A stretch of 64,000 nucleotides of DNA from Spirochaetia bacterium (GCA_965203905.1 CBDBDQ010000005.1:2112001-2176000); one strand, 5' to 3'. Positions 1,221 through 56,354 are shown, counted from the stretch's first letter. Notes: generated by a model from the sequence alone, not told the origin. Translations and numbers: made by a program.

Positions 1221-1547
1221 TCAGGCCTCTTGTAGTGAGCAGCGTAGCGGGAATTCATGCTCGCGCGCCAGCCGATGTACGTGCTCGATCTTCATCTCCG
1301 CCGTCTCGCGCGTGTACACCCCGCAACGACCCGCGCCGTGGCGATGAATCGCGAGCATGATCTGCGTCGCCTCGGAGGGCGACTTGTGGAACACCCCTTC
1401 GAGCACGCTCACCACGAAGTCCATGGTGGTGTAGTGGTCGTTGTGCATGATCACCTCGAACAGCGGCGGCTCGCGCACCTCCACCCCGGTGCTCGGGTCG
1501 TCGAATACCTCCGGAGACCAGGGAGCAGTGTGTTCCGCGTCGCTCAT
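1221..1547 (-). CDS. clpS: Clp protease adaptor ClpS
   Basis: C-terminal part of ORF 1221..2402: PPLFEVIMHNDHYTTMDFVVSVL...HEFPLRCSLQEA. ATG at 1547 overlaps the upstream stop (ATGA). Confidence 0.95.
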   Translation of the reverse strand: MSDAEHTAPWSPEVFDDPSTGVEVREPPLFEVIMHNDHYTTMDFVVSVLEGVFHKSPSEATQIMLAIHRHGAGRCGVYTRETAEMKIEHVHRLAREHEFPLRCSLQEA

Positions 1548-2656: not shown

Positions 2657-3282
2657 GCGCGGCCTGCGCCGGTCGCCAACGCGGCGGCCGCTTGCTCTAC
2701 GGCGCGCCAGTAGGTGTCATGCTCGACCGCAAGCACGCGCCGCGCCAGGGTTTCGGGCGAGTCGTCGGCGTGCACCGCGACCTCGCGCTGCAGCAGGATC
2801 GATCCGGCGTCGTACTCCTCGGTGACCCAATGCACCGTGACCCCGGTCTCGCGCTCGCCCGCCGCCAGCACCGCGCGGTGGGGTGCCAGGCCGTACATGC
2901 CGGCACCGCCGTGGCGCGGCAGCAGCGCCGGGTGGATGTTCAGAATCCGGCCCCGCCAACACCGTACCAGCTCCGCCGGCAGGCGCTTCAGATAGCCGGC
3001 CAGCACGATCAACTCGACGCCGTGGCCGCGGAGGATCTCCCGCAGGCGGGCGGAGAGCATCTGCGGCCGGGGATGGGTGCGGCTCGACACGTGGTAGCAC
3101 GGGAGCCCGCGGCCGCGCGCCAGCGCCATCACTCCTGCGCCGCTGTTGTTGCCGATCAGGCAGCGGTAGTCGGGCCGTACCGTGCCGGTGTAGCGGTGAT
3201 CCAGCAAGGCGGCGACGTTGCTGCCGGAGCCGGACGCGAACAGTGCCACCGGCAGCGTGGAGACACCGCGTCGCCCGTCCAC
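2638..3282 (-). CDS. purN: phosphoribosylglycinamide formyltransferase
   Basis: FASGSGSN, LAGYLK, NIHPALLP, GVTVHWV..YDAG motifs. Start codon is uncertain (GTG 3282). Confidence 0.9.
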   Translation of the reverse strand: MDGRRGVSTLPVALFASGSGSNVAALLDHRYTGTVRPDYRCLIGNNSGAGVMALARGRGLPCYHVSSRTHPRPQMLSARLREILRGHGVELIVLAGYLKRLPAELVRCWRGRILNIHPALLPRHGGAGMYGLAPHRAVLAAGERETGVTVHWVTEEYDAGSILLQREVAVHADDSPETLARRVLAVEHDTYWRAVEQAAAALATGAGRACGGTH

Positions 3283-3295
3283 CGTCGCGCTCCGC

Positions 3296-6001
3296 TCAGG
3301 TGCGGGCGGCGAACTCGGCGGCCCGTACCTGGAACTGTCCGGCGGCCAGGGACTCATCTTCCACCAGCTCGAAGCCCTCGGCCCGCACCGCGCTGATCAC
3401 GTCGCCCGCCACCGCCTCCGCGACGCGGACTGTGCTCGGATGGGCGGCGAGCCGGATCGAGTCGACCGCCCGCGCCACCGACACGGCGGCCTGCGTCTTG
3501 TGCCGGTGGATCGCCGCCAGGCACGCCTTGGCGACGGCAAAACTGTCGCCGTCGGCGGGCTCCCCGAGGGGGCCGAATTCGGCGGCCGCGGGCCACGCGG
3601 CACGATGCACCGAGCAGGCGGCGGGAAGCGGGCCGGCCCCGTCGCTGCCGTCCTGTTGCGCCACTATGCGCGGCGCGTAGTCCCACGACCACACCTCCTC
3701 GGTGATGTACGGCAGCACCGGCGCGAACAGGCGCACCAGCACGCGCAAGGCGAAGTCCAGGGCGGCCACGGCCGAAGCGCGCGCCGCTGCGCTCACGTCG
3801 CCGCTGCCCTTGGCCCGATTCTTGGCCAGCTCGATGTAGGAGTCGGTGAAGTTGTCCCAGAAGAACTCCTCGGTGTGGGCCAGGGCGGTGGCGTAGTCGA
3901 AGTCGTCGAACGCCACGCTCGCCCGCTGCACCAGGGCGCGGAGCTGTTGCAGGAAGGCACGGTCCAACTCCTCGCTCACCGCTTCCGCAACGGGGCGCTC
4001 CCCCAGCTCGGCGTGGGCGGCGGCTACGATGGCGGTCACGAACTTGCCCGCGTTGTACAGCTTGGTGACCAGCCGGCGGCCGATCTTGAACACCGACTCG
4101 TCGTAGGCGGTATCCACCCCCAGCCGGGCGCTGGCCGCCCAGTAGCGCGCCGCGTCGGCATGGTGGGTGTCGATGATCTGCTGCGGAGTGACCGTGTTGC
4201 CGCGGCTCTTGGACATCTTCTTGCGGTCCGGGTCGAGGATCCAGCCGGAAATCAGGGCGTGACGCCAGGGGATGGTGTCGAAGTGCAGGTGCGCCTTGGC
4301 GATGGTGTAGAACGCCCAGGTGCGGATGATGTCGTGCGCCTGGGGCCGGATGTCCATTGGCGACAGCCGTTCGTGGCGCTCCGGATCGAGGATCCAGCCG
4401 CTGCCGATCTGCGGGGTCAGGGAGCTGGTGAACCAGGTGTCGAACACGTCCGCCTCGGCGGTGAATCCATTTGGCCGGTCGCGTTGCCCGGGCTCGTAAC
4501 CGGGCGGCGTGTCGCTCAGCGGGTCCACCGGCAGCGCCTCCAGTGGCGCCAGCAACGGCCGCTCGTAATTCGGCGTACCACGCTCGTCGAGGGCGTACCA
4601 CACCGGAAACGGTACGCCAAAAAAACGCTGGCGGCTGATGCACCAGTCGAACTGCAGGTTCTCGGTCCAGTTGACGTAGCGGCTCAGCATGTAGCCGGGG
4701 TGCCACTGGATCTCGCGGCCGCGCTCGATCAGCTCCCGGCGCTTGTCGGTGAGGCGCACGAACCACTGCCGGGTGGTGATGAACTCCAGCGGCCGGTCGC
4801 CCTGCTCGTAGTAGCGCACGGTGTGCTCGATGGGGCGCGGCTCGCCGCGCAGGGGCGGCCGGTCGCCGGCGGCGGCGGCGCCCGCGTCGCGGAGCTGGGA
4901 AACGATGGCGGCGCGCGCCTGGCGCAGGTTCTTGCCGGCCAGCTCGGAGTAGTAGCGGTTGGCTGCGTCGGGGTCGGCGCTGTCCCACACGCCGCTGCCG
5001 AAGGTGACCGGCTGCAGGCGACCGTCGCGGCCGACGACCTGGCGCAGCGGGAGCCCCTGCTCCTGCCACCACTGCACGTCGGTGGTGTCGCCGAAGGTGC
5101 ATACCATCAGGATGCCGGTGCCCTTCTCGGGGTCCGCCAGCTCGGTGGCGAAGATCGGCACGCGGGCGCGAAACAGCGGGGTGACGGCGCGTTGCCCGAA
5201 CAGATCCCGGTAGCGGGCGTCGTCGGGGTGGGCGGCGACGCCGACGCAGGCGGCGAGCAGCTCCGGGCGGGTGGTGGAGATCACCAGTTCCCGTCCGCTG
5301 CCCTCCGCGGCGAAGGCGATGTCGTGGTAGTGGCCGGCGGTGGGCCGGTCCTGCACCTCGGCCTGGGCCACGGCGGTACGGAAGTCGACGTCCCACATGG
5401 TGGGCGCCTCGGCCGAGTACAGGTGGCCCTTGCGGTATAGGTCCAGGAAGCTGTACTGGGCCAGGTGGCGGCTGGCGTCGTTGATGGTGGCGTACTCTTC
5501 GTTCCAGTCCACCGACAGGCCGATGGTCTGCCACACGCCCATGAACGCACGCTCATCCTCCCGCGTGACCAGCGCGCACAACTCGATGAAGTTGCGCCGC
5601 GACACCGGCCGCGGCGGTGACTTGAACGCCTTGCCGGTAGCCATCGACAGCTCCAGGCCGGGCTCGTAGGGGTGGCTCGGGTCGCAGCGCACGTGGAAGT
5701 AGTTCTGCACCCGGCGCTCGGTGGGCAGCCCGTTGTCGTCCCAACCCATGGGGTAGAACACGTGCTTGCCGAGCATGCGCTGGTAGCGGGTGACGACATC
5801 GGCCTGGGTGTAGCTGAACACGTGGCCGACGTGCAGCGAGCCGGACACGGTGGGCGGCGGCGTGTCCACCACGAACGCCTGGTCGCGGCGGTGGTTCGGA
5901 TCGTAGCGGTACACGCCGGCGGCCTCCCACCAGCGGCGGAAGTGCTGCTCCCGGCTCGCGGCGTCGTAGTGGCGGGGTAGCTTGCTGGGGTCGAAGGACA
6001 T
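3296..6001 (-). CDS. valS: valine--tRNA ligase (short form lacking the C-terminal coiled coil)
   Basis: DTPPPTVSGSLHVGH (HIGH motif), DWCISRQR, KMSKS. Confidence 0.95.
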   Translation of the reverse strand: MSFDPSKLPRHYDAASREQHFRRWWEAAGVYRYDPNHRRDQAFVVDTPPPTVSGSLHVGHVFSYTQADVVTRYQRMLGKHVFYPMGWDDNGLPTERRVQNYFHVRCDPSHPYEPGLELSMATGKAFKSPPRPVSRRNFIELCALVTREDERAFMGVWQTIGLSVDWNEEYATINDASRHLAQYSFLDLYRKGHLYSAEAPTMWDVDFRTAVAQAEVQDRPTAGHYHDIAFAAEGSGRELVISTTRPELLAACVGVAAHPDDARYRDLFGQRAVTPLFRARVPIFATELADPEKGTGILMVCTFGDTTDVQWWQEQGLPLRQVVGRDGRLQPVTFGSGVWDSADPDAANRYYSELAGKNLRQARAAIVSQLRDAGAAAAGDRPPLRGEPRPIEHTVRYYEQGDRPLEFITTRQWFVRLTDKRRELIERGREIQWHPGYMLSRYVNWTENLQFDWCISRQRFFGVPFPVWYALDERGTPNYERPLLAPLEALPVDPLSDTPPGYEPGQRDRPNGFTAEADVFDTWFTSSLTPQIGSGWILDPERHERLSPMDIRPQAHDIIRTWAFYTIAKAHLHFDTIPWRHALISGWILDPDRKKMSKSRGNTVTPQQIIDTHHADAARYWAASARLGVDTAYDESVFKIGRRLVTKLYNAGKFVTAIVAAAHAELGERPVAEAVSEELDRAFLQQLRALVQRASVAFDDFDYATALAHTEEFFWDNFTDSYIELAKNRAKGSGDVSAAARASAVAALDFALRVLVRLFAPVLPYITEEVWSWDYAPRIVAQQDGSDGAGPLPAACSVHRAAWPAAAEFGPLGEPADGDSFAVAKACLAAIHRHKTQAAVSVARAVDSIRLAAHPSTVRVAEAVAGDVISAVRAEGFELVEDESLAAGQFQVRAAEFAART

Positions 6002-42807: not shown

Positions 42808-45336
42808 GTGAACGTATCCGTTGATATGCCGGCGCGGGCGCGGATCGTGGTGATCGGCGCCGGCATCGTCGGCAACTGCCTGGTGGGGCACCTGGCGGAG
42901 CTGGGCTGGGATGAGCTGGTGCTGATCGACAAGGGGCCGCTGCCCGATCCGGGCGGGTCCACCGGGCACGCGTCGAACTTCATCTTTCCGACCGATCACA
43001 ACCGCGAGATCGCGATGCTGACCCTGGAGAGCCAGCGCCAATACGAGGCGCTGGGCGTGAACACCACCTGCGGCGGGGTCGAGGTGGCGCGCACCGAGGA
43101 GCGCATGGAGGAGCTGCGCCGGCGCATGACCTCGGCGCGTTCCTGGGGGATCGAGGCGGAGCTGCTGACGCCGGACCAGGTGGTGGCACGTATTCCGTTC
43201 GTGGACGGCGCCGTGATCAAGGGCGGCTTCTGGATGCCGGCGGTGTCGGTGGTGGACTCGGTGCAGGCGGGCACCGTGATGCGCGAACGGGCGCTGGCCA
43301 GGGGCGCGCTGACCGTGCTGGACAACACCGAGGTGACCGGGCTGGAGCTGGAGCGGCGCCGGTTCGGCCGTCCGCGCATCCGCGCCGTCGTGACCGGCGG
43401 CGGCACCATCGAAGCGGAGCAGGTGGTGATCGCCTGCGGCGTGTGGAGTCCGCGCATCGCCGCCATGGCCGGGGCCAGCATCCCCCTCACCCCCGCCGTG
43501 CACCAGATGGCGGACATGGGACCGGTCGACCTGCTGGCCAGGACCGGCAACGAGATTGGCTACCCGATCGTGCGCGACATGGACGTGTTCATGTACGAGC
43601 GCCAGAGCCACGAGGCGATGGAGGTGGGTTCCTACGCCCATCGCCCGATCCTGGTGCGCCCCGACGACATCCCCTCGCTCGCCGAGGCGGAGCGCTCGCC
43701 TACCGAGATGCCGTTTACCGGCGCCGACTTCGCGCCCCAGCTTGGCCACGCGCGCGAGATCATGGGCGAGCTGCTCGCCGGCACGGAGATGCAATACGCG
43801 GTGAACGGGCTGCTGTCGCTGACGCCGGACACGCACCAGGTGCTCGGCGAGACCGCGGAGGTGGAGAAGCTGTGGTCGGCGGCGGCGGTGTGGATCAAGG
43901 AGGGGCCGGGCACGGCGCGCCTGATCGCGGAGTGGATCACCTACGGCTACCCCCGCCTGTGCGATCCCCACGCCTCCGACATCACCCGCTTCTACGCCCA
44001 CGAGCGCACCGAGCAGCACATCCGCGGGCGCTGCGACGAACACTTCAACAAGACCTACGGCATCGTCCACCCGCGCGAGCAGTGGGCGTCCGAGCGCGGC
44101 ATGAACCGCGCCCCGTTCCACGACCGCACCACGGCCCTGGGCGCCGAGTACCACGAGGCGCGCGGCTGGGAGCGCCCGCAGTGGTACGCGTCGAATGCCG
44201 ACCTGGTGGAGCGTTACGGCGTCTCCGACCGGCCGCACGAGTGGGACCGGCGCTGGTGGTCGCCGATCAGCACCGCCGAGCACCTGCACCTGCGGGAGAA
44301 GGTGGGGATCGTCGACCTCAGCGCGTTCCAGATCTTCGACCTCTCCGGACCCGGCGTGGTGCCCTGCCTGGAGCACCTCACGGTCAACAAGTGCGACCGC
44401 CCGGTGGGCAGCTCGATCTATACGCCGCTGCTCACCCCGGACGGCGGCATCCGCGCCGACCTCACCATCCAGCGCCTGGCGGCGGACCGCTTCCGCGTGG
44501 TCACCGGCGCCTTCGACGGGGCGCGCGACGAGGTGTGGTTCCGGCGCCACCTGCCGGCGGACGGCTCGGTGCAGTTCGAGAACCTGTCATCGGCGCTGTG
44601 CACCATCGGCGTGTGGGGACCGGAAGCGCCCGCGCTGCTGGCCGGCATCACCGGCACCGGCCTGGCGCAGGCGGACTTTCCGTACGGCACGGTGCGGGAG
44701 GCGATCATCGACGGCGTGCCCGTGACCATGCTGCGCATCTCCTACGTCGGTGAGAACGGCTGGGAGATCACCACCCGCATGCAGCACGGCGTGCGCCTGT
44801 GGGACGCGCTGTGGCAAGCGGGCCGCCCGCTCGACGCCCGCCCGGTGGGCATCGGCGTGTACGGCACCACCGGGCGCATGGAGAAGGGCTACCTGCTGAT
44901 GGGATCCGACCTCACCGCCGAGTACTCGCCGGTGGAGGCCGGCCTGGCGCGGCCGCGCGTGAAGCGGGACGACTTCATCGGCAAGCAGGCCTACCTGAAG
45001 GCTCGCGCGACCGCTCCCGCCGCGCGGATGTGCGCGCTGACCATGGACGACCACACCGGCGCCGCCGGCAGCGCGCGCTTCCCCACCGGCGGCAACGAGC
45101 CGATCCTGACCGCGGACGGCTCCCGCATCGCCGACGCCCACGGCCGCGAGTCACGCGTCACCTCCGCTGGCCTGGGGCCGTCGGTGGGCAAGTACCTGCT
45201 GTTCGCCTACCTGCCGCCGGTGCACGCGGCACCCGGAACCCGCCTGCAGGTGTTGTACATGAACGAGCCCTTCCCGGTGACGGTAGCCGCCGGCCTGGCG
45301 ACGTTCGATCCCGCCGACACGCGCATGAAGGCATGA
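42808..45336 (+). CDS. FAD-dependent oxidoreductase with GcvT C-terminus (dimethylglycine oxidase/dehydrogenase-like)
   Basis: VIGAGIVG, GGSTGHAS, GWERP, RISYVGENGWE motifs. Confidence 0.9.
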   Translation: MNVSVDMPARARIVVIGAGIVGNCLVGHLAELGWDELVLIDKGPLPDPGGSTGHASNFIFPTDHNREIAMLTLESQRQYEALGVNTTCGGVEVARTEERMEELRRRMTSARSWGIEAELLTPDQVVARIPFVDGAVIKGGFWMPAVSVVDSVQAGTVMRERALARGALTVLDNTEVTGLELERRRFGRPRIRAVVTGGGTIEAEQVVIACGVWSPRIAAMAGASIPLTPAVHQMADMGPVDLLARTGNEIGYPIVRDMDVFMYERQSHEAMEVGSYAHRPILVRPDDIPSLAEAERSPTEMPFTGADFAPQLGHAREIMGELLAGTEMQYAVNGLLSLTPDTHQVLGETAEVEKLWSAAAVWIKEGPGTARLIAEWITYGYPRLCDPHASDITRFYAHERTEQHIRGRCDEHFNKTYGIVHPREQWASERGMNRAPFHDRTTALGAEYHEARGWERPQWYASNADLVERYGVSDRPHEWDRRWWSPISTAEHLHLREKVGIVDLSAFQIFDLSGPGVVPCLEHLTVNKCDRPVGSSIYTPLLTPDGGIRADLTIQRLAADRFRVVTGAFDGARDEVWFRRHLPADGSVQFENLSSALCTIGVWGPEAPALLAGITGTGLAQADFPYGTVREAIIDGVPVTMLRISYVGENGWEITTRMQHGVRLWDALWQAGRPLDARPVGIGVYGTTGRMEKGYLLMGSDLTAEYSPVEAGLARPRVKRDDFIGKQAYLKARATAPAARMCALTMDDHTGAAGSARFPTGGNEPILTADGSRIADAHGRESRVTSAGLGPSVGKYLLFAYLPPVHAAPGTRLQVLYMNEPFPVTVAAGLATFDPADTRMKA

Positions 45337-45407
45337 ACCGCGGTTGCCGGTGTCGCAAAGTGCCGTCACGATATAGGCAAGTTGTGGAGCGGTTCGAAGG
45401 TGATCAA

Positions 45408-45851
45408 GTGGCCGTGTCTCGGAGCGTGGCGGAGGCCGTGGCGTTCATCTTGGGCGGAGTCGCCGGCATCGGCCTGGAGGTACATTCGGATGCCGAATTG
45501 GCCGACGCCGTGGCTGCCGGCTTCGACGTGAAGGCGATCGACGCGCTCAAGCAGAGGGGCGTTACCGGTGCGGAAGTGAACTCTCTCATCATCAAGCCGC
45601 GTACCCTGTCGCACAGGCGGGCGAATGGAGGCAGGCTGACGGTCGATGAGTCCGATCGCGCCGCACGGGTGGCGCGGGGCCTGGTGCTCGCGGAGAGAAC
45701 CTTCGCCAACCGAGAAAAAGCAAGCCGCTGGATGCACCGAAATCTCGGCACGCTCGGCGGTCGCACGCCGATGGAACTGCTCCGCACGGATGCCGGCGCC
45801 CGCGCCGTCGAGAGTCTGCTGGCGCGAATCTCCTGGGGCGCGGCGGCCTGA
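45408..45851 (+). CDS. Xre/MbcA/ParS-type antitoxin (orphan; no RES toxin follows)
   Basis: RTLSHRR..LTVDESDR..R, KASRWM..LGGRTPMELLRTDAGARAVESLL. Confidence 0.82.
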   Translation: MAVSRSVAEAVAFILGGVAGIGLEVHSDAELADAVAAGFDVKAIDALKQRGVTGAEVNSLIIKPRTLSHRRANGGRLTVDESDRAARVARGLVLAERTFANREKASRWMHRNLGTLGGRTPMELLRTDAGARAVESLLARISWGAAA

Positions 45852-45876
45852 TGTGCTTACCGAACGCCGTACAGCT

Positions 45877-46614
45877 CTACTCACCTATATTCGGCGGCTC
45901 ATCAATCATTTCGATCCAACTCAAGAGCTCATTCCTCCGGCTCTTCAATCGCTGCTTCACCTCGTCCCTAAAGTCATCCTCCCCAAGAGAGAGCCGACCA
46001 AGAGTGCTTCCAACATCATGCCACCAAGGAAGCAAGCTTGTCTGATCGAAAGAGTTCTCAATGTAACCTCGTAGCTTTCTGACGATACCTTTCAACTCAT
46101 CGTGAGCCTTCCAAGAGGCTTCTTTTGCCTTCTCTTTCTTCGTCTCGTCATCGTACGATACTGTTGAATGAATCTCATCATACGCCGGATCCAAGACTAT
46201 GACCATCGCCTTCAGCATGTCAATTACAATTGTTGAATTACTTTCAATACAGAACAAATGCTCTGATTGTCTGTCCACACGAGAAATTAGATCTGCCGAT
46301 TCACCAGTCCTCGCTACAACATCGTCGGAGGTCGTATCATACTTACTTCTTCGAGAATGCCACAACGTCCAAAAAAAGACACCAACAAAAATCAAGAACA
46401 GTGCGTCGAAGATTCGCTCTCCCCAGTCCAACTGGCTCACAAAAAGCAACAGACGAGCAATGAGCGACTTCCAAGCAGAAATGTCATCGGAGACGCTTGC
46501 TAATCCCAGAAGGTCAATAAGATTCTGGGCACGCGCAAGAATGCCCGAAGTTATGCCGCCGGATCCTGAAACCCATTGTAGTCTTCGCAGCCACTTTTTA
46601 CGGGCAGTTCGCAT
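45877..46614 (-). CDS. hypothetical membrane-anchored protein
   Basis: 245-aa ORF in lower-GC DNA with a hydrophobic segment IFDALFLIFVGVFFWTLW. Confidence 0.55.
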   Translation of the reverse strand: MRTARKKWLRRLQWVSGSGGITSGILARAQNLIDLLGLASVSDDISAWKSLIARLLLFVSQLDWGERIFDALFLIFVGVFFWTLWHSRRSKYDTTSDDVVARTGESADLISRVDRQSEHLFCIESNSTIVIDMLKAMVIVLDPAYDEIHSTVSYDDETKKEKAKEASWKAHDELKGIVRKLRGYIENSFDQTSLLPWWHDVGSTLGRLSLGEDDFRDEVKQRLKSRRNELLSWIEMIDEPPNIGE

Positions 46615-47022
46615 TCGGTAGCCTCAGAGAGCTCCTCTATCTGCGTTGATGCTCATATAGGAAGCCTTGTGGAGAGACAGAGACGACTACTCTCGTAGCA
46701 CCGGTACGTGATTCGCACGAACCGGCACAGAGACTGCCGGATTCAGCGTGTCGGTCTATTGAATGCAAAGGGAATACGCACATGTGCCATCATAGTGTCG
46801 TCAGCTCGGCACCACAGCGCGCGAGAGTATAGTCCATCGCCGATTGGTGGTTTCCGTGTAATACCGGCAATTAAGTCCGCGCAAGTGGCGAATCTAGGAA
46901 TCCGGCACCGCATGAGGTGAGACCTTGACCGTCCGTGATCTTGCCACTTGTGGCGTCGAAGTGTCGATAATCTGGAGAATCCGTTCTACTTATCCAATCC
47001 GTATACGGTTGAGTCCAAATGC

Positions 47023-48204
47023 TCATTTGCCGTTCTTCAACCTGAATGCGGAAACCACTTCCTGTTTAATCAATCCCCTATGACCCTTTCGTTTGGGTGC
47101 AAGCGTTCTACTTTGGATTCTGTCTTCGAATCGGTCGAACAAGCGAAAGTTCATACTCTCCAATATCTGGTTTAGTGCGTCCCATGTGAGGATTCTTCGT
47201 CCTCCCACAAGGTTATCGCCACAGACTAGTATTAGGGTGCCATCCGGCGCAAGTAAATCCTTAAACGAGAGGAATGCCATCTCCATATCCCGAAAATACC
47301 GATGGACAATAGCCGCACGTTTCATACATTGAATTTCAAGTTCTCTTAGTTGAGGAACCAGTTCTCTTCTATGCTTCGACTGTTCATCATAAACTAGAGA
47401 AGTACTAACACCTCGCTCTGTACCTATGAACTCCCGAATAATGCAGTCCACACGGAACGGCAACAAGCCCTCGAGCATGTAGAGCTCAAGTTTCGCGTTT
47501 CTAAAGTAATCCTGAGCATTGACGTACGGAGGGGAGGTGATGACATGTGAACACGTAAACGAATCCCTATGGGACCGCGCCGCATCAATGACACTGATGT
47601 GATGCACACTTGGGCCAACGTCTTGCGGGTCTCCGTAGAACCTCGAGAGTTCACTAAGGACGCTCTGAAGGACGATCATAGGATCAAAATGCTTCCCTTT
47701 TCGTACCCTCCGCGCTTCCTGTGAAATAAACGGCTTAGGGCTACGCTGGTCGGACCGTGAACACGGGCGGACGGAGAGCCCCATCGATAGGAGCACTCCA
47801 CGCCCCGCTGCCGTATCATTGAGTCCCATCTCCGACGCTACGAACCGGATCTGCTGGAACTTCCGTAGTGTGGCGGGTGTGAACCAATATCTCGCATTAC
47901 TCCAGGCTAGGGGCAGTTCTTTGCTCGAATGAGCGCGACATACGAGATCGTCGCAAAGCCGCCTTGCTTCGTCAGCGTCGAACCCCTCAATCTTTACCTG
48001 CGATAGGAGAACGCCAAACGGATTGATGTCCATCCCAGAGACCTTAAGGCTCTCTTTGCGGGCGGCGTAGAGTACCGCTCCGGATCCGCAAAACGGATCG
48101 ACCAAGTGGCTCGCATCACTAGCATACCGAGTGACGAGTGTTCGCGCGAGATGTGAAACCATCTTTCCTGGATAGCGGTCTATGCGCGCGGGTGGAGATG
48201 TCAT
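47023..48204 (-). CDS. DNA amino-methyltransferase (N4-C/N6-A)
   Basis: RYPGKM, motif I DPFCGSG, motif IV TSPPY; ATGA overlap with the upstream gene. Confidence 0.85.
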   Translation of the reverse strand: MTSPPARIDRYPGKMVSHLARTLVTRYASDASHLVDPFCGSGAVLYAARKESLKVSGMDINPFGVLLSQVKIEGFDADEARRLCDDLVCRAHSSKELPLAWSNARYWFTPATLRKFQQIRFVASEMGLNDTAAGRGVLLSMGLSVRPCSRSDQRSPKPFISQEARRVRKGKHFDPMIVLQSVLSELSRFYGDPQDVGPSVHHISVIDAARSHRDSFTCSHVITSPPYVNAQDYFRNAKLELYMLEGLLPFRVDCIIREFIGTERGVSTSLVYDEQSKHRRELVPQLRELEIQCMKRAAIVHRYFRDMEMAFLSFKDLLAPDGTLILVCGDNLVGGRRILTWDALNQILESMNFRLFDRFEDRIQSRTLAPKRKGHRGLIKQEVVSAFRLKNGK

Positions 48205-49142
48205 TCTGGGCAAAAAATTATCCATCTGTTCCCAATACCGCGGGAATAGTAATGGAGATTATGTCGCAATACCTGCGAGTAGATCAAAGAAGGGGGGTCC
48301 GTACACTCGCGGATGTAGGTGTACGCTCCCACTGCTTGGGGCTTGGGTCCAAGGGGACACACGGCACGACGAAAGTCCGAATACACGCGGACATCACCCA
48401 AGACGCGACTCAGAACCCTAATCGTCGAACTAGGATCAATAGCATCAGCACGATCCACACAGGACTGGTCATCAATCGTAGCCACAAGGTTGCGATTGAG
48501 ACGTTCCGTTCGGCCCTTCCACTCAGGACGGAACGGCGGGTCTGGCACGATGAGCGTCGTGCGCTTCGGCTGGAGAATCTCATACGTTGAAAGTGCGCGG
48601 TCGCCTTCGTATCCCAAGAGCATCACAGCGTGAAGTGGCCGGCTCGGGTTGGCAGATGGAGCAAACCCCGGGAGCAGCGTCACGGATGACACGCCGAACG
48701 AAAGGGGCAATCGCCCTTTGATCTCATACTCTTCGGGTTCGCTGTATACTATCCAAAGACGATCCCAGAGTCCACAATCGTCAAGAAGTCGTAAAAGAAG
48801 GAGGAGAGTGCGTTTCGACATCACCGAGATATCCACAACTACCGGGCGACTTCCACTCTCTCGCAAGACGGATCGAAGAGGGCGGTGTCCATCGGCCGAT
48901 GTCTCCGTGATGCAACTCAAGGAAAGCTCCACGACCGGCGATCGCGCTTCTAACATGGATAGTAGCGTCATTCGATGCTCGTAACCCGAAGGTGTCTCCT
49001 CTTCGTACCCGAACAAAATGGTCTTCTTGGGAACCCAATCTTCACAATCTCCCAAGATCCCGAGACATCGCGGCTCGTGACTTGAGCACACCAACAGCAG
49101 GCAGTCCTGTGGAAGTAACTCTTGATCAAATACCGCCTTCAT
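48201..49142 (-). CDS. conserved hypothetical protein, possibly tandem CARF-like Rossmann fold
   Basis: VVVDISVMSK, IVYSEP, LLGYEGDR and PLGPKPQ repeated-fold motifs; coupled to the ATPase and MTase genes. The fold call is an inference. Confidence 0.6.
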   Translation of the reverse strand: MKAVFDQELLPQDCLLLVCSSHEPRCLGILGDCEDWVPKKTILFGYEEETPSGYEHRMTLLSMLEARSPVVELSLSCITETSADGHRPLRSVLRESGSRPVVVDISVMSKRTLLLLLRLLDDCGLWDRLWIVYSEPEEYEIKGRLPLSFGVSSVTLLPGFAPSANPSRPLHAVMLLGYEGDRALSTYEILQPKRTTLIVPDPPFRPEWKGRTERLNRNLVATIDDQSCVDRADAIDPSSTIRVLSRVLGDVRVYSDFRRAVCPLGPKPQAVGAYTYIRECTDPPSLIYSQVLRHNLHYYSRGIGNRWIIFCPE

Positions 49143-51464
49143 AAGCCCTACGACCCATTCTCTCCAAATGGAAGTTGTGCACTGAGATCAGATCGGTGCC
49201 TACGTTGGGACCAACTTCCTACGAGAAGACTCTTTGTCGTCCTACGATTCTCTTTGTCCAACAGCCCCAACAACTGAGAGCACCCCACCGTAGTTCTCCA
49301 TCTCAATCGTGGACTGATCTCAAGTGTCGGCGCAAAAATACGTGAAATATTGATCTCCAGTGGCTGTGGATCTTCCACATGCTTTGGTCGTATACCCGAT
49401 CGTCCTTCAAGAACTTGAAAAACCCCTTCCTTAATCCCTATACCGATCATCTTTCTTAGCAACTCGTAGTCGCTCTCCAACAGCATCTGAGGATCTCTAA
49501 TGGCAAGGCGTGCCGCTTCAGGCTCGCTTGAGTGGTGAAGCAACTTTTGTCTAAGACAATCCCCTAAATCAAGCAGAAAATCCTTAAGCTTCTCACCATA
49601 CGTCTCTATATTCCGGCTAAGTGTTGCCAAATTATGTACCGACACGACATGAACAGCCTCCGATTGAAACTCCGGATCTATCGAGAAAAAATCACTCATC
49701 TCATTCGACTGCAAGTGATATGCCATGAGAAGGACCTCTTGAAAGTAGCGAATGACTCCAGAGCTAATAAATGCCAACTCCTTGTACCCAGAGAACCGCT
49801 TCTTTGTCCGCCTCCCAGGGCTACCATAGAGCTGTCGGTAAATTGCCGCCTCGCGATAGTAGGACAACTTCGCATCCTGAGTACGTACGTCCCAAGAATC
49901 AAACTCCCGCCGATCAATCCGAAGGAGCCGAAGTGTCTCTTCAACGACTTTCTCTCGGGGAATTTCGTCGTCACTGCTCTCTGGAAGAAGCCTCGCAAGC
50001 GTCGCTGGAGCGCCTTCTCGCGTTGTAAGAAGTTTTCCTACCATGTTCTCAAGGAGCCCGATGTATCGCTCGAAGTCAGAGTCATTCTCTACCGAGTAGA
50101 TCAGCGTCACCCTATTGTAATCATGCGTCTCCTGGAGCTCTTGTCCTTCGGTAGTGTCCGAGACTTCTTGACTCCCTATCTTTCGCGCTACTTTGACAGA
50201 GATCGTAGGCGGCCCGAGCTTAATGAGACTGTTGACCACAACTTTCTGATATGAAAGGAGGTTCTCATACTCATCTAACAGAATCGTGATTTGACTACGC
50301 GACAACGACCGAACATTCCTTCGAACTAGGTTTACGACCCGTCTAAAGGTCGCGAGTCCGAAGGACGCGAACGGAATGGAGGTAGCCTCATCGTAGATGA
50401 ACTTCCTGCGGACGAATTCCGCCAGTTTGAGGTGCATATCTGCGAAGTGCTCTAGCAGATCCTCAAAACGTTCAAGCGTGCTCTCGGTCTGTGGAGATAG
50501 AACACCGGCTATCGACCGTACCAATGTCCCCTCAGAACGGCTCCCGAGTTCTAGTCTATTGGCACGCGTGCAATGGGAGATCTCTGACACCATACTCTCA
50601 ACAACACCAAGATAGAATTCCTGAGCGAAGACATCAGTCAGTTGTGCGAGTGTCTTGGAGTCGAACGGTACCGAGAGATCGTCGACCTTAAGAGAGGTAC
50701 CAGCATTGCAGAAGGCACCCCGTTCAAGGCGAACGTAGCAACCAAAGAGCTGACGAAGAGTCTTCGGTGAATCCGAGCGAGCGGAAAGAATACGAGCCCT
50801 CAGAGATAGCAAAAGCATAGTCTTTCCGGTGCCACGGGAACCTTCAAGAAAACAAGGTTTCATCTCCTCGAGAACTCGTATCTTAGCTGCATCTGGCGGA
50901 GAGAATGATGAGGCCAACAGTGTTGGGTTATCCTCTTCAAAGTACTCGGCCCGAACCCGCCAGAAGGGGTTTAAGGAGTCCTCCTTTAGTGCTGCACTGA
51001 TAGTTGATGTGTCTGAGATTGTGTCAGAAATCTGAGAGCACAGTTGCTCGAGCGTATGTTGGTAGTGCTCATCGTCAACACTCCCATATACGTGGGTGCC
51101 TATAAGTGGAGGTAGCTGAACAGACCCATACTTGAGGACGATAACGCTTCCGCCATCTTGGCTGACACGATTCCATAACGCGGCGGATATCTCAAGTCTT
51201 TGCCAATTGGCGCCATGGGTGTTCTTTGAATAGATGACGATTATGGTGTGAGAATTGGCAATTGCTTCGTTCATAAATTCTATTGAACTAAACCGCTTCG
51301 CGGTAGGGGTGGCGTCGGCCGTGTCGAGGCGCGGAGCCCTTCCCAAACACAATCCCTACATGGTGTCTGGACTCTACTAACGGGAGATGGGTGGTTGCCC
51401 CCGGAGCGTAGCGCCGCTCCGGAGGCTGATGGACCACGCGTCTCTACACGAGGAGGAGTCCATC

Positions 51465-52307
51465 ATGACACCACTGCGCCAGAGAATGATCGAAGACATG
51501 CGGGTGCGCAACCTGTCCCCGCACACCATCGAATACTACGTCCGCCAGGTCGCGTTGTTTGCCCGCTACTTCAACCGCTCTCCGGAGCTGCTCGGGCTCG
51601 ACGAAATAAGGGCCTATCAACTGCACCTGGTGCAGGAGCGAGAGCTGGCTTGGGGTAGCTTCAATCAGGCAGTCTGCGCCCTCCGCTTCCTGTACCTCAA
51701 GACCCTCGGCAAGGACTGGCACATCGAGTCCATCCCGTTCGCCAAGCAGCCCAAGAAGCTGCCGCTGGTCCTGAGCCAGGACCAGGTACGCTCGCTACTC
51801 GAAGCGATCACCAACCCGCAGCACCGCGTCATCGCCATGACCCTGTATGCCGCCGGGCTGCGGGTTTCCGAGGCCGTCTCCCTGAGGGTCACAGACATCG
51901 ACAGCAAGCGGATGCTGCTGCATGTCGTGCAAGGCAAGGGCCGCAAGGATCGTTTGGTGACGTTGTCGCCGCTCCTGCTGTACCACTTGCGCTGCCACTA
52001 CCAACGCTATCGGCCGCGCTACTGGCTGTTTCCCAGCAGGACCTATCCCGACCGCCACATCACCAGGGACGCGGTGGCCAACGCCATCGCCGCGGTGCGC
52101 CACGTCGTCGCCGGCAAGCCCGTATCCCCGCATACCTTGCGCCACTGTTTCGCCACCCATCTGCTGGAATCCGGCACCGATCTGCGCACCGTCCAGGCGC
52201 TGCTCGGACACGCCTCGATCAGGAGCACCGTGATCTACACCCACGTCACCCGCAAGCGCATCAGCGCGGTCGAGAGCCCGCTGGAGTCGTTGCCACCGCT
52301 GCGCTGA
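51465..52307 (+). CDS. tyrosine recombinase/integrase
   Basis: MTPLRQRMIEDM N-terminus; YAAGLRVSE, KGRK, HTLRHCFATH, LLGH, Y motifs; GAGGAGG RBS. Confidence 0.93.
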   Translation: MTPLRQRMIEDMRVRNLSPHTIEYYVRQVALFARYFNRSPELLGLDEIRAYQLHLVQERELAWGSFNQAVCALRFLYLKTLGKDWHIESIPFAKQPKKLPLVLSQDQVRSLLEAITNPQHRVIAMTLYAAGLRVSEAVSLRVTDIDSKRMLLHVVQGKGRKDRLVTLSPLLLYHLRCHYQRYRPRYWLFPSRTYPDRHITRDAVANAIAAVRHVVAGKPVSPHTLRHCFATHLLESGTDLRTVQALLGHASIRSTVIYTHVTRKRISAVESPLESLPPLR

Positions 52308-52314
52308 GCTCCCA

Positions 52315-53529
52315 GTGCAGCAGCCCCCGTTCGAGGTGGCCGACGTCATCCGTACCCTGGCTGCGGCCGATGGTCGGGTGCCGGGGTTGCGGGTGTCGCA
52401 GGCTCAACAGCGCGTCCTCGGCGACCTCGCAGCCTGTCGTACCGCCAAGCTTGGTGGCCACGTCGATGCCTGCGATGCCTGCGGTGAGCTACGCGTATCG
52501 TACAACTCCTGCGGCAATCGCCACTGTCCCAAGTGCCAGGCGCAGCAGCGCGCGAAGTGGCTCGAAAACCGTTGCCAAGATCTGCTGCCGGTCCCCTACT
52601 TCCACGTCGTTTTCACCCTGCCGGCAGAGCTGGCGCCGCTGGCACTGCAGAACCAACGCGAAATTTATGGCGCCCTGTTCGCTGCCGCCGCCGCTACCCT
52701 CAGGACCATCGCTGCCGACCCCAACCATCTCGGTGCTCAGATCGGCTTCATCGCCGTGTTGCACACCTGGGGTCAGACCCTGGTGCACCATCCCCATCTC
52801 CACTGCGTCATCCCGGGTGGCGGGTTATCCCCCGACGCTGCCTCCTGGATCTCCTGCCGTGACGATTTCTTCCTCCCGGTCCGGGTCCTCTCACACCTCT
52901 TTCGCGGCAAGATGCTGGCCGCGCTCCAGCAACGCTTCGCTGCCGGTCATCTCCACTTCCACGGTGCTGTTGCTGAGTTGGCAGATCCCGCTCGCTTCCG
53001 AACGTTGTGCCGGCAACTGCGCCGCAAACGGTGGGTGGTGTACTCCAAGCCGCCCTTCGGCGGGCCCCAGCAGGTGCTCAAGTACCTGGCTCGCTACACC
53101 CATCGTGTCGCCATCGCCAACCGCAGGATCACGGCTGCCGATTCGGACTCCGTGAGCTTCCGTTACCGCGACTATGCCCGTGGCCGCCGTCACCGGGTGC
53201 TGAAACTCGACACCGTGGAGTTTCTGCGTCGCTTTCTGCAGCACGTCTTGCCCAACCGTTTCGTCCGTATCCGCCACTACGGCTTTCTCGCCAATCGTGC
53301 ACGTAAGGAAAAACTTCCGCGGTGCCGCTATCTGATTGCCCAAGCCTCCGGCCAGGACCTGATCACTGCGCCTGATCTCTCAGTTTCTCTCGAACCTCCC
53401 GGCGACGATCATCAACGCTGTCCGGTGTGCCACGCAGGAACCATGCGCCGCATCCAGGACTTCTGCTCTCAACCCACCTGGGAGTATGAGTACCTGCCTG
53501 GTCGCCGCGCTCCCCCCGAGGCCGCATGA
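52315..53529 (+). CDS. IS91-family (Y2 HUH) transposase with N-terminal zinc-binding domain
   Basis: YNSCGNRHCPKC, HVVFTLP, HPHLH (HUH), YLARY, RIRHYG motifs. Confidence 0.92.
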   Translation: MQQPPFEVADVIRTLAAADGRVPGLRVSQAQQRVLGDLAACRTAKLGGHVDACDACGELRVSYNSCGNRHCPKCQAQQRAKWLENRCQDLLPVPYFHVVFTLPAELAPLALQNQREIYGALFAAAAATLRTIAADPNHLGAQIGFIAVLHTWGQTLVHHPHLHCVIPGGGLSPDAASWISCRDDFFLPVRVLSHLFRGKMLAALQQRFAAGHLHFHGAVAELADPARFRTLCRQLRRKRWVVYSKPPFGGPQQVLKYLARYTHRVAIANRRITAADSDSVSFRYRDYARGRRHRVLKLDTVEFLRRFLQHVLPNRFVRIRHYGFLANRARKEKLPRCRYLIAQASGQDLITAPDLSVSLEPPGDDHQRCPVCHAGTMRRIQDFCSQPTWEYEYLPGRRAPPEAA

Positions 53530-53849
53530 CTCCATCTCCAGAACACCATCCGTTCGATCTCATCACGCATCCCTTCGCGCCGCCGTGCCGTTGCTCCTGC
53601 GCACCCGTGCGCGGCGCCGGCCGCGAGCTCCCCGTCAGCCGCTCGTCGCTGCCTCATCGCTTGGCGCTGTCACTCAGCTCCCCGTTCTGCTCCGCGAGCC
53701 CGCGCCTGCCCGGGCACCCCCAGCACTCCGCCGCCACCGGGATACCGGCGTTCCAATCTCCATAGGCGCGCGGTTTAGTTCAATCAACCCTATCCGAACT
53801 GGCCCCGGCCACGCGGCAACGGCCAGCGTTCGCCGTTCGCGCGGCCAGC

Positions 53850-53891
53850 TCGGATAGACTCCTTCTCATTTCGGATAGACTCCTTCTCATT
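53850..53891 (+). repeat. 21-bp tandem duplication at the element's right end
   Basis: TCGGATAGACTCCTTCTCATT occurs twice (53850-53870 and 53871-53891). Confidence 0.9.
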
Positions 53892-54542
53892 ATGTCGTGA
53901 CCGAACTTCAGTTCATGCAAATCGATGTAGACGTCATGACCTGCCATTCTCAAGTCATCATGGAGTCTCGTAGCAATCTCTGCGTCTTCGTCAGCGTGAG
54001 AGATGAAAATGTGCTTCAGTTTCTCGGGCTCCTCAGTCGTGTGATTTGAGTGTTGAACAGATCGCGGAAGGTGCGCGGATACTCCCTAAGTGCTAGGAAT
54101 CGTCTGCGAATCGTTCGGTTGTGGTGTCGAATCTCTGCAGTCGGCGATTCCTCCCTCCGGTTGGAACGGCACCATAGTGGCTGGCCTGGTACTGAAAGAG
54201 GTGTAATGGTCGCATCAGTTACACCCCGTAGGATTAGTGACCGATCTATGGAGTTGTCGGTGAAGCTATGGGAGAGGTTGAGATGAGCGTTATAGCTTGG
54301 TGCTCGTCCAGCATGTATTGGCAGGGTGCCAAACATCAGATTTCGTGAAGAACGTTAACTCGCAAGGATGTTGGTCTGCGTGCTTCCTCGCGCCAGTGCC
54401 GACCATGATCGGTGCAGTTCAAGCTTGATCTCCTCAATGGAGCGAGAGTCATAGACGTCAAGACTCTTCACCTTCGGTACATCACGGTCGCCAAGGGGTC
54501 ACGGACGAGGGACTCGCTGATGACACCGTAGCACGATTCTGA

Positions 54543-56354
54543 CTAGTGCGTCCCGGCGGCGTGGACGTATTCCAGGCTCTGGTGGCGGAAGTAGGTGTTG
54601 TACAGCTCCGCGTAGTGGCCGCCGGCCCGGAGCAGGCTGTCGTGGGAGCCCTCTTCGATGATGCTGCCGGCGCGCAGCACCACGATGCGGTCGGCCTGTC
54701 TGATGGTGGACAACCGATGCGCGATGACGATCGCGGTACGCTCGTTCAAAAGCTCGTCCAGACCCTCCTGGATCAGCGCCTCGGTAAGGGGATCGACGCT
54801 CGCGGTGGCCTCGTCGAGGATGATCACGGAGGGGTCCTGCAGCAGCACCCGTGCCAGCGCCACGAGCTGGCGCTGACCCAGTGACAGGTTGCGGCCGCGT
54901 TCGGCCACCTCGGTGCTCAGGCCGTCCGGGAGGGTGGCGATCCAGTCGCCGGCTCCCACCCGCTGCGCCGCCGCCGCCACAGCGTCGTCGTCGGCGTCGT
55001 TCCTGCCGTAGCGGATGTTGTCCAGCACGCTGCCGTTGAACAGGAACGGCACCTGGGTCACGAACCCGAGCTGGGAGCGAAAGCTGGCCAGATCCAGGGA
55101 GCGTACGTCGCGCCCGTCGACCAGGATCTGCCCGCCCTGGAATTCGTAGAAGCGCGCCACCAGCTTGGTGATGCTCGACTTGCCGGAGCCGGTGTGTCCC
55201 ACCAGTGCCAGCGTCTCGCCGGGGTGGACGCTGAGCGAGAAGTTCTCGAATACCTGCTCCCCCTCCTTGTAGTGGAAGGTGACGTTGCGTAGCTCGATGG
55301 CACCGCTCAGCTCCGCCACCGGTTCGGCACCGGTCTGCGTCACCTGGGGATCGGCGTCGATCAGCGCGAACACCCGCTCGCCGGCCGCCAGGCCGAGCTG
55401 GAACTGACTCCAGAAGGAGGCGATGGAGGTGAGCGGAAACCACAGCAGCCCGATCCCCTGTAGGAACAGGTACCAGTCGCCGATGGTCAGGCCGCCGTGC
55501 TCCGCGCGCAGCCCTCCGCTGTAGGCGAGGATCGCGGTACCCAGCCCGGAAACCGTGAACAGCACCGGGAAGATACTCGAGAACACCACCCCGGAACGCC
55601 AGCTCAGCCGGAACGACTGCCGGTTGACGCCCGTGAACTGCTCGTACAGGACCTGTTCCTTGCGGAACGACTTGGCGATGTTGATGCCGCTCACCGTCTC
55701 GTGCACGTGGGCGCTCACCTCCGCCACCGCGCGCCGCGACTGGGTGACCACGTCCCGCGCCAGACGCCGAAAGCCGAGTGCCACCCCGACTACCACCGGC
55801 ACCAGCGCCAGCGCGATCAGGGTCAGCATCGGGTCGACGGTGAACAGATAGGCGAAGATCAGCAGCACCATGGTGACCTGGCTGAACACTTCCATGGTGA
55901 GGGTCACCACTTCGGAGAACGCCTGGGTGTCGGCGGTCACCCGGCTCACGATGCTCCCGGTGGGATACTGGTCGTAGAACGACAGGTCGTGGCGCATCAG
56001 CGCATTGAAGGCGTCGCCGCGCAGGCGCAGCACGACGCTGCCGATGGCGCGGGCGCCGAGCAGGCGGCGCACCACGTTCAGCCCCCAGCTTCCCGCGTTC
56101 AGCAGCGCGATCGCTACCACAATGGCGGCGATGGTGCCGGAAGCGGCATCGGCGTCGGCCACCAGGTCGATGGCGCGCGACATCACTACCGGCAGCGCCG
56201 TGGTCAGCAGGGATCCGGCGGCCACCGCCAGCGACACGATCAGCATGCGCCGCCCCTCGGCGCGGAAGTAGGTGAAGATGCGGCCCACCAGCTCGCGGTC
56301 GCCGTAGGTGCGGTCGTACTCTTCGGCGGCGATGCCGTCCATGAGGAAGCCCAC
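54543..56354 (-). CDS. ABC exporter, fused permease/ATPase
   Basis: GHTGSGKS, LSLGQRQ, ILDEAT motifs. Confidence 0.92.
   Translation of the reverse strand: MGFLMDGIAAEEYDRTYGDRELVGRIFTYFRAEGRRMLIVSLAVAAGSLLTTALPVVMSRAIDLVADADAASGTIAAIVVAIALLNAGSWGLNVVRRLLGARAIGSVVLRLRGDAFNALMRHDLSFYDQYPTGSIVSRVTADTQAFSEVVTLTMEVFSQVTMVLLIFAYLFTVDPMLTLIALALVPVVVGVALGFRRLARDVVTQSRRAVAEVSAHVHETVSGINIAKSFRKEQVLYEQFTGVNRQSFRLSWRSGVVFSSIFPVLFTVSGLGTAILAYSGGLRAEHGGLTIGDWYLFLQGIGLLWFPLTSIASFWSQFQLGLAAGERVFALIDADPQVTQTGAEPVAELSGAIELRNVTFHYKEGEQVFENFSLSVHPGETLALVGHTGSGKSSITKLVARFYEFQGGQILVDGRDVRSLDLASFRSQLGFVTQVPFLFNGSVLDNIRYGRNDADDDAVAAAAQRVGAGDWIATLPDGLSTEVAERGRNLSLGQRQLVALARVLLQDPSVIILDEATASVDPLTEALIQEGLDELLNERTAIVIAHRLSTIRQADRIVVLRAGSIIEEGSHDSLLRAGGHYAELYNTYFRHQSLEYVHAAGTH

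Follow-up and report, generated by a model that had tools for sequence, protein, structure and literature searches.

Within a 64,000-nt stretch of DNA from a Spirochaetia bacterium (GCA_965203905.1, CBDBDQ010000005.1:2112001-2176000; the whole stretch is called the window here, and positions are counted from its first letter), we identified what we regard as rather probably an inactivated copy of a conserved, mobile immune cassette. It consists of three minus-strand genes, encoding an ORC/CDC6-like ATPase with an N-terminal TIR domain, a 313-aa CARF-like protein and a DNA methyltransferase; the ATPase and the CARF-like protein would together form the core switch, with the TIR domain as effector and the methylase as provider of a self mark. 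An earlier note on this DNA, made from the sequence alone, had described three tightly coupled genes in lower-GC DNA, and this layout stands. The ATPase stop codon is separated from the start of the 313-aa gene by a 5-nt gap, the methylase ATG (48204) overlaps the TGA of the 313-aa gene as ATGA, and GC content is 45-57% over 46000-51500 and 54000-54500 vs 62-76% in the flanks.

The ATPase gene is present in two pieces. The first, an N-terminal TIR piece beginning KHIFISH (53892-54019, minus strand), matches the TIR_2 profile over positions 1-42 (E 2.1e-8) and PADLOC TIR models with a best E of 5.3e-10. The second (49148-51284, minus strand) carries TIR_2 profile positions 42-121 followed by an ORC-CDC6-like AAA+ ATPase, recognized by PF24389 with 189.6 bits against a cut-off of 27 (E 1.4e-55). 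On the Pfam map, TIR_2 positions 1-42 fall on 53871-54085(-) and positions 42-121 on the start of 49148-51280(-). As present in the window, the ATPase open reading frame (ORF) has 734 aa (49148-51352), the first 24 codons of which derive from an insertion. The sequence motifs are nevertheless all intact, namely NPFWRVRAEYFE, Walker A GSRGTGKT with an Arg in the P-loop, Walker B LLDEYE and the Glu of WQRLE, so that the TIR domain and the Walker A/B ATPase named in the earlier note are both confirmed. Over 680 aa, the window ATPase is 47% identical to an intact 757-aa homologue at a related locus, L002.

What separates the two pieces is an IS91-family insertion (51285-53891, plus strand; PF00589/PF13495 and PF04986/PF14319, with further copies in the genome), which cuts the TIR domain exactly at TIR_2 profile position 42. 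It encodes a tyrosine recombinase (51387-52307; PF00589/PF13495) and an IS91 transposase (52315-53529; PF04986/PF14319; NF033538, 8.6e-132). The same genome holds two more full-length copies (91% identity) and two partial pieces, at 90-93% identity overall (L084, L085, L086, L087), and alignment of the copy ends places the start of the element at ~51285/6 and its end at ...CTCCTTCTCA (53868-53891). The terminal 21 nt of the window copy are tandemly duplicated (53850-53870 and 53871-53891); since the flank beyond the second 21-nt copy resembles the flanks of the other element copies, we take 51285-53891 to be the element plus this duplication, the same span as in the earlier note. The remaining copies are bracketed by a ~28-nt sequence (TACTTCACATAATCCCGCACTTTACATT) that occurs in inverted orientation on the two sides, pointing to a preferred target or a nested repeat.

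Removing the element joins 128 nt (53892-54019) to 2137 nt (49148-51284), which restores the reading frame and yields 755 codons, very close to the ~750-aa protein that had been rebuilt across the insertion beforehand. At the joint, GAC ATA / ATA GAA reads as G-HDIIEFM-N, with the same 7-residue G...N spacing as in the homologue consensus. In the contigs of two samples of the organism, we found no joint that skips the insertion, both samples running into the element. At the left junction, one contig per sample extends 27-30 nt into the element, which is short of our 31-nt bridging rule; the right junction is bridged by one X1 contig.

Because the TIR domain is split, the effector cannot be made, and we judge the window copy to be inactive, as had been suspected. 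The CARF and methylase genes are intact, and this lack of decay in the rest of the cassette indicates that the insertion is evolutionarily recent. Note that the codon at 54017-54019 (-) is CTG, at the place where homologues have Met (MxxxFISHA), with a good Shine-Dalgarno sequence (GAGGAG) 9 nt upstream; no ATG, GTG or TTG occurs between the upstream stop (54086-54088) and KHIFISH. The CTG at 54019 is either a rare start codon or a second inactivating lesion. A Betaproteobacteria metagenome-assembled genome holds another copy in which the TIR-ATPase gene is damaged and the CARF and methylase genes are not (L001, positions 1233-3670): here, only the last ~180 ATPase residues are left, preceded by a 409-aa ORF without a Pfam family.

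The second gene (48201-49142, minus strand) encodes the 313-aa tandem CARF-like protein, which is of the CARF6 type and has no effector domain. At the thresholds used, it matched no family in Pfam, NCBIfam or PHROGs, and its relatives in the ESM Atlas belong to 'hypothetical protein' clusters only. It does match ten PADLOC 'CARF6' models, the best with 4.6e-22 over profile positions 9-293 of 308, in agreement with the CARF-like call of the earlier note. An AlphaFold2 model (pLDDT 81.5, pTM 0.86) shows a (beta-alpha)4 unit plus beta hairpin twice, in residues 15-156 and 172-310. Makarova et al. 2014 (PMC4012209) describe the CARF core as six-stranded and Rossmann-like, with a hairpin made up of strands 5 and 6; its signature consists of a polar S/T where strand 1 ends and of [DN]x[ST]xxx[RK] just behind strand 4. 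Both halves of the model have this core topology, and the signature is found as S20/S21 after strand 1 and D104-I-S-V-M-S-K110 after strand 4. Among 29 sequences, D104 and K110 are invariant and S106 is kept in at least 90%; with more distant members added (alignment A5), the D is still invariant and the S still kept in at least 90%. In the second half, a Lys that closely follows the fourth strand is invariant (PLG-x-K-PQ). We therefore regard the protein as a stand-alone tandem CARF without an effector domain, its membership in the superfamily being well but not conclusively supported.

Relatives of the CARF-like protein are numerous, with 268 at 90% clustering, all of them annotated 'hypothetical'; among 50% representatives, there are 771 at E<=1e-3, 162 at <=1e-10 and 37 at <=1e-30. 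The gene was found in one of 400 other sampled genomes of the phylum, as a weak partial match, and a comparison with 72,556 plasmid and 50,697 phage records gave no match. Three rare single-member proteins combine cassette parts, P0269 (747 aa) consisting of the ATPase C-terminal part plus CARF, and P0146 and P0037 (643 and 457 aa) of CARF plus methylase. These may be real fusions, but since the genes overlap, they may equally be products of frameshift, read-through or gene calling, and we did not use them as evidence.

The third gene (47023-48204, minus strand) encodes a 393-aa amino-type DNA methyltransferase (PF01555, PF02086) with motif I DPFCGSG and motif IV SPPY, the latter having already been recognized. 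It matches PADLOC MTase_II over its full length (1.3e-24) as well as phrog_18146, a phage methylase family (7.5e-35), and both DPFCGSG and TSPPY are kept in at least 90% of 56 methylases. A longer methylase ORF starting at 48225 exists; homologues align from about residue 8, and a public protein collection contains the window's own 393-aa form with its start at 48204. The remark that no restriction nuclease accompanies the methylase likewise withstood the analysis: we found no nuclease domain in the island by Pfam, and no recurrent cluster of flank genes beyond one near-duplicate locus pair, except for ThyX (6 loci). The endonuclease beside the methylase that marks a type II restriction-modification system is thus absent.

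Whether the three genes remain linked elsewhere had been named beforehand as a test, and they do. A pattern scan of genome contigs with a single protein query returned 2 loci from 131 candidate stretches, reflecting the limit of the pattern method, and in metagenome contigs searched with alignment A1, 99 of 149 stretches were relatives, 80 of them being kept; L007 was dropped as the same sequence as L001. Linkage was scored by phmmer, comparing the window proteins with six-frame ORFs of the related loci. Among loci with 600 nt or more of space, 57/62 have the ATPase upstream of the CARF gene in the same orientation; the methylase follows downstream in 64/69, and 43/52 have both, the order ATPase-CARF-methylase being kept down to ~30% CARF identity. 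In the five loci without an ATPase (L033, L034, L058, L080, L082), the CARF match begins at residue 34 or later, and these loci look like decayed copies. Of the five loci without a downstream methylase, L041 has one inverted 680 nt downstream, L042 and L066 have partial CARF matches, and L065 and L071 are taken up below.

All three proteins keep their catalytic motifs. The ATPase alignment covers 38 of the 43 ORFs, from which L001, L072 and L077 (truncated or split) and the duplicates L053 and L064 were excluded. Of these full-length proteins, 38/38 contain PF24389, 35/38 TIR_2 and 3/38 SEFIR. Invariant across the alignment are Walker A G-x-R-G-x-G-K with its P-loop Arg, Walker B L-x-D-E-x-E and a linker N-P-F-x(5)-E-x-F, and the TIR Glu is kept in at least 90%.

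No conserved fourth gene was found in the flanks, except in one low-GC subclade (L061, L062, L065, L067, L069, L074) whose CARF proteins are 58-77% identical to one another. Here, the gene for the thymidylate synthase ThyX lies directly against the methylase gene or overlaps it; in L067, ThyX is upstream of the ATPase, and in L065 it directly follows the CARF gene, the methylase being missing. The association may reflect shared synteny, or else ThyX may be functionally linked to pyrimidine methylation.

A structural model of the intact ATPase homologue of L002 (pLDDT 86.9) had its best PDB matches in the plant TIR-NLR protein RPP1, BREX BrxC, Avs5, RdrA, archaeal ORC1/ORC2 and Cdc6, and its N-terminal part matched many TIR domains, including those of Cat1 and SPARTA. 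Overall TM values of these matches are low (0.16-0.22), as expected for a multi-domain chain. Judging from the model, the architecture is of the TIR-NLR type. We also predicted the complex of L002 ATPase residues 140-757 with the L002 CARF protein and obtained ipSAE values of 0.72, 0.68 and 0.72 in three runs, whereas the highest-scoring of 3 controls had 0.00; 92% or more of the contacts agree between runs, and partner pLDDT is 79 or higher. In calibration of the tool, the mark was reached by 58/80 solved complexes and 2/110 mismatched pairs, which is a rough guide here (our own alignments were used). Parts of the ATPase in the predicted interface include the invariant NPF...E.F linker (142-162), which lies between TIR and ATPase, a loop (227-243) and, from an insert in the AAA+ core, helices 250-278 and 318-342; those of the CARF protein include its conserved 152-173 loop. 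Of the 16 CARF residues invariant in alignment A5, G153 alone is in the listed interface, and the location of the others outside it is consistent with a separate conserved pocket. These predictions support, rather than show, that the CARF protein binds the ATPase.

Searching plasmids with the window ATPase by tblastn, we obtained two records, from Yoonia sp. SS1-5 (NZ_CP151764.1) and Paraburkholderia sp. FT54 (NZ_CP134198.1), each with a sister cassette. The order on the Yoonia plasmid is a C5-cytosine methylase (PF00145), HD-CE (PF24391), an ORC-CDC6-like ATPase (3.4e-89) and a 323-aa CARF-like protein, for which hhalign gives a full-length match to the CARF profile (98.7%, 2.7e-16). On the Paraburkholderia plasmid, the order is PRTase-CE (PF24390), ATPase (5.4e-116) and a 313-aa CARF-like protein (hhalign 98.6%, 6e-16). 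The proteins of the sister cassettes are all annotated 'hypothetical'. 'CE' stands for 'conflict effector' (bioRxiv 10.64898/2026.01.15.699771), and PF24389, PF24390 and PF24391 are consecutive Pfam accessions, which suggests a common source of the three families.

Since the same ATPase and CARF thus occur with differing effectors and methylases, the fixed core is the ATPase plus tandem CARF, around which the effector and the methylase family vary, which makes the TIR domain one swappable effector of a larger class. Shared with the sister cassettes are the ATPase family, a full-length or nearly full-length CARF-like partner immediately downstream and the lack of a nuclease, and, with Yoonia, a DNA methylase in the operon. 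In contrast, the window effector is a TIR domain fused to the ATPase N-terminus vs a separate HD-CE or PRTase-CE gene, and the Yoonia operon has its C5-methylase first vs the amino-methyltransferase last in the window. The window copy has what places it in this class: a PF24389 ATPase, a ~310-aa CARF6 protein immediately downstream, a fused TIR effector and an operon methylase, the last of which is not universal. The earlier note had called the operon a candidate undescribed one, which goes too far. In NCBIfam (June 2026), no system-specific model reached its cut-off, and apart from the generic CARF6, MTase_II and TIR models, nothing specific to a system matched in PADLOC 2023; on the other side, the ATPase has its own Pfam family, the CARF protein falls into PADLOC CARF6 and sister cassettes exist. 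The parts of the class are catalogued, in Pfam and in the PADLOC CARF6 models, and the trio itself is without a name or experiment that we could find.

Several known systems share features with the cassette. Both the window cassette and BREX combine a DNA methylase with an ORC/Cdc6-type ATPase without a classical restriction nuclease, and the ATPase model matches the BrxC structures 9zdx and 9zll (E 1.5e-4 to 7e-4). However, the window has no PglZ, BrxA, BrxB or BrxL, and BREX has no TIR or CARF; PglZ had no match at all, and the sole PglX match (E 0.029) is a weak one located on the ATPase, the methylase matching MTase_II. MADS (mad1-mad8) is represented by weak single matches, of mad8 to the ATPase (5.2e-5) and of mad2 to the methylase (2.3e-4). 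With TIR-NLR/STAND proteins (RPP1, Avs, bNACHT), the cassette shares the N-terminal TIR, a STAND/ORC-type NTPase and a helical C-terminal region, and the RPP1 tetramer is the top fold match (E 1.8e-5). Unlike these proteins, it has no repeat-type sensor (LRR/TPR) and has instead a separate CARF subunit and a methylase, and none of the Avs/NLR PADLOC models matched with an E of 0.1 or lower. In the established model, TIR-NLR/STAND proteins are activated by oligomerisation.

Coupling of a CARF-class sensor to a TIR NADase is also seen in type III CRISPR and CBASS (Cat1 CARF-TIR, TIR-SAVED). There is, however, no Cas10/CD-NTase cyclase in the island, CARF and TIR are on separate proteins bridged by the ATPase, and the methylase has no counterpart. 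Thoeris has a TIR with the conserved Glu as well, and the window TIR has weak similarity to ThsB models; it differs in being fused to the ATPase and in having no ThsA (SIR2/SLOG or Macro) partner. The ThsB-type family PF08937 scored 18.8 bits, under its cut-off of 21.2, and the NCBIfam Thoeris model 27.3 bits vs a cut-off of 220. A precedent for linking a methylase to a small-molecule sensor is PUA-Cal-HAD (bioRxiv 10.64898/2026.01.15.699771), in which an abortive effector is under the control of a sensor that binds nucleotides; the signal, m6-dAMP, stems from host DNA methylation and is set free as the phage degrades the chromosome. As described there, that system differs in its unrelated proteins (a PUA-like sensor, calcineurin-CE and HAD effectors), in relying on the host Dam methylase and in depleting dNTP rather than NAD+.

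Taking this together, the cassette type, which is widespread, is probably an anti-phage system, whose working form is most likely an NLR-like switch for abortive infection, in which a CARF subunit serves as sensor and methylation as the self mark. The mechanism put forward in the earlier note, which coupled self/non-self methylation to ATPase-driven TIR activation and nucleotide sensing, is plausible. A stand-alone tandem-CARF subunit would be bound to an ORC/Cdc6-like (STAND-type) AAA+ ATPase carrying the N-terminal TIR. An infection cue would act on the CARF pocket, possibly jointly with DNA seen by the ORC-like module, and would release ATP-dependent oligomerisation of the ATPase. This would bring the TIR domains together, leading to destruction of NAD+ and growth arrest of the infected cell, and the co-transcribed methylase would mark the host chromosome as self vs invader.

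A number of points weigh against this reading. Regarding the sensor, the top Foldseek match of the CARF-like model in the PDB, Thermus thermophilus Csm6, has an E of 1.2e-5 and a probability of 1.00 but a TM of just 0.29; KaiC scores nearly as well in this search, and the family sequence profile had no match among solved structures. The cassette encodes no signal synthase other than the TIR domain. As to linkage, the near-duplicate pairs L028/L029, L052/L053, L063/L064 and L033/L034 remain in the locus counts, and a methylase does not seem obligatory: in L065 and L071, ATPase and CARF are intact but the available DNA contains no methylase, and none is listed alongside the Paraburkholderia cassette, for which the gene table is incomplete. 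Regarding a role in defence, the cassettes of the low-GC subclade have housekeeping genes (thyX, cofD, spoU-type) as neighbours, an unusual setting for a mobile defence island. The neighbours at other loci speak in favour of defence: a PADLOC comparison (E<=1e-6) of 131 flanking ORFs, each 180 aa or longer and taken from 43 loci (duplicates dropped), gave matches to HmaA/B/C, type I and III restriction, DrmA/DrmD (DISARM), DpdE, BrxH, AriA (PARIS), GajA (Gabija) and mad3, among others; the support from this tally is qualitative, as it has no background rate and no count of matching ORFs. Finally, the literature searched, whose coverage excluded the likely source papers of the families, yielded no text on the trio and no system name or experiment for any member.

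We weighed three other explanations for the same genes. The ATPase might be a restriction-like gate, scanning DNA through its ORC-like fold and firing the TIR at sites without the methylase mark, the CARF protein tuning or resetting the switch; we consider this possible, if on the doubtful side. It would fit the coupling of a methylase to an ATPase with no nuclease, the match of the ATPase model to BrxC of BREX (E 1.5e-4) and to DNA-bound archaeal ORC1, and the exchange of methylase families (amino-type here, C5 in Yoonia), as though any self mark will do; in addition, a preprint argues that ORC-CDC6-like components sense invader DNA. However, such a gate leaves the most conserved CARF pocket without a job, and loci with ATPase and CARF and no methylase nearby (L065, L071) should be self-toxic. 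It is improbable, in our estimate, that the TIR instead makes an NAD-derived signal as in Thoeris, for the tandem CARF to bind or degrade as amplifier or off-switch, with the methylase as a passenger. The TIR is indeed the sole candidate signal-making enzyme of the cassette, the CARF fold senses nucleotides, CARF proteins that stand alone can act as ring nucleases, and the weak ThsB matches point the same way. But the sister cassettes keep the same CARF with HD-CE or PRTase-CE in place of TIR, and therefore the CARF ligand is not in general a TIR product; a methylase linked in 64/69 loci is too consistent for a passenger, PF08937 stays below its cut-off and a ThsA-like partner is missing.

The remaining explanation, to which we give equally little credence, dispenses with immunity: as an addiction or epigenetic module of a mobile element, the methylase would be the antidote and the TIR-ATPase a post-segregational killer stabilising the island. 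The low-GC island did replace the toxin gene of a toxin-antitoxin pair, as described below, and sister cassettes are located on plasmids. Moreover, it is the presumed toxic gene that was hit by the insertion and the methylase that is intact, a pattern that would resemble decaying restriction-modification systems. The failure of the CARF-like protein to match any of the plasmid and phage records, and the defence-gene neighbours at other loci in so far as a qualitative tally can tell, both argue against it, although addiction and defence are not mutually exclusive.

Returning to the abortive-infection switch that we favour, its cue might be a self-barcoded alarm. The cassette methylase would put a mark of its own on the chromosome, and methylated (deoxy)nucleotides or short oligonucleotides, freed from it as a phage degrades host DNA, would be bound by the tandem CARF pocket, upon which the CARF-bound ATPase would oligomerise and fire the effector of the given cassette, here the TIR domain; PUA-Cal-HAD offers a precedent. 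This is a speculative and, on balance, unlikely proposal. If true, it would give all three genes a role, account for the absence of both a nuclease and a signal synthase and explain the interchange of unrelated methylase families; versions without a methylase could use a resident methylase of the host.

To our knowledge, all CARF pathways described so far have a dedicated cyclase upstream, and all methylation-based defences have a nuclease or a large BREX/DISARM-type machine downstream. With neither cyclase nor nuclease, the present cassette would link an NLR-like switch and a nucleotide-sensor fold directly to a DNA methylase, and both its effector (TIR, HD-CE, PRTase-CE) and its methylase type are exchangeable around a fixed ATPase-CARF core. 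Identifying the CARF ligand would reveal either a kind of CARF ligand not known before or a novel means by which DNA methylation status is read. Members of the family are small (~4.4 kb), their natural variants number in the hundreds, and the predicted ATPase-CARF interface names specific residues; the window copy is broken, and its value is that of a pointer to the family, not of a working system.

The cassette is carried by a low-GC island of 8.7 kb (45854-54548, no strand assigned), delimited by the GC profile and by comparison with a genome of the same genus (G407). In this relative, collinearity with the window ends at 45853 and resumes at 54549, the two points being 554 nt apart; the relative does not have the island, which we count in favour of mobility, and we read the island as horizontally acquired on these comparative grounds. 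At this place in the relative (L103:1935-2902), the 554-nt interval encodes a 159-aa RES toxin (8.4e-22 to the PDB entry 'Toxin Res'), the gene of which directly follows an Xre/MbcA-type antitoxin gene. The window retains an Xre/MbcA/ParS-type antitoxin (45360-45851, plus strand; PF20432 and PF09722 on the end of the ORF 44799-45851, which is the antitoxin part) with no toxin after it. As the antitoxin is kept and the toxin is absent, the island replaced the toxin gene, and the antitoxin ending at 45851 was left as an orphan when the island took that place.

Besides the insertion, the island contains four minus-strand genes, that is, the three of the cassette and a 245-aa ORF (45877-46614) with one hydrophobic stretch and no Pfam family above cut-off, located 408 nt downstream of the methylase; its FixQ-like match is weak and below cut-off. 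The earlier note had listed it as a membrane-protein gene following the other three. No relative of it was found in the 82 related loci searched, and because of this we place it outside the conserved cassette and regard it as cargo of the island. A scan of the island for promoter-like and terminator-like sites was uninformative (7 vs 4.8 and 4 vs 6.8 expected, respectively). Outside the window, the same genome has a second, weak PF24389 match (C5:1669241-1669447, L102; 32.7 bits, profile 2-60), which sits in an 825-aa open frame and may represent another ORC-CDC6-like/STAND protein.

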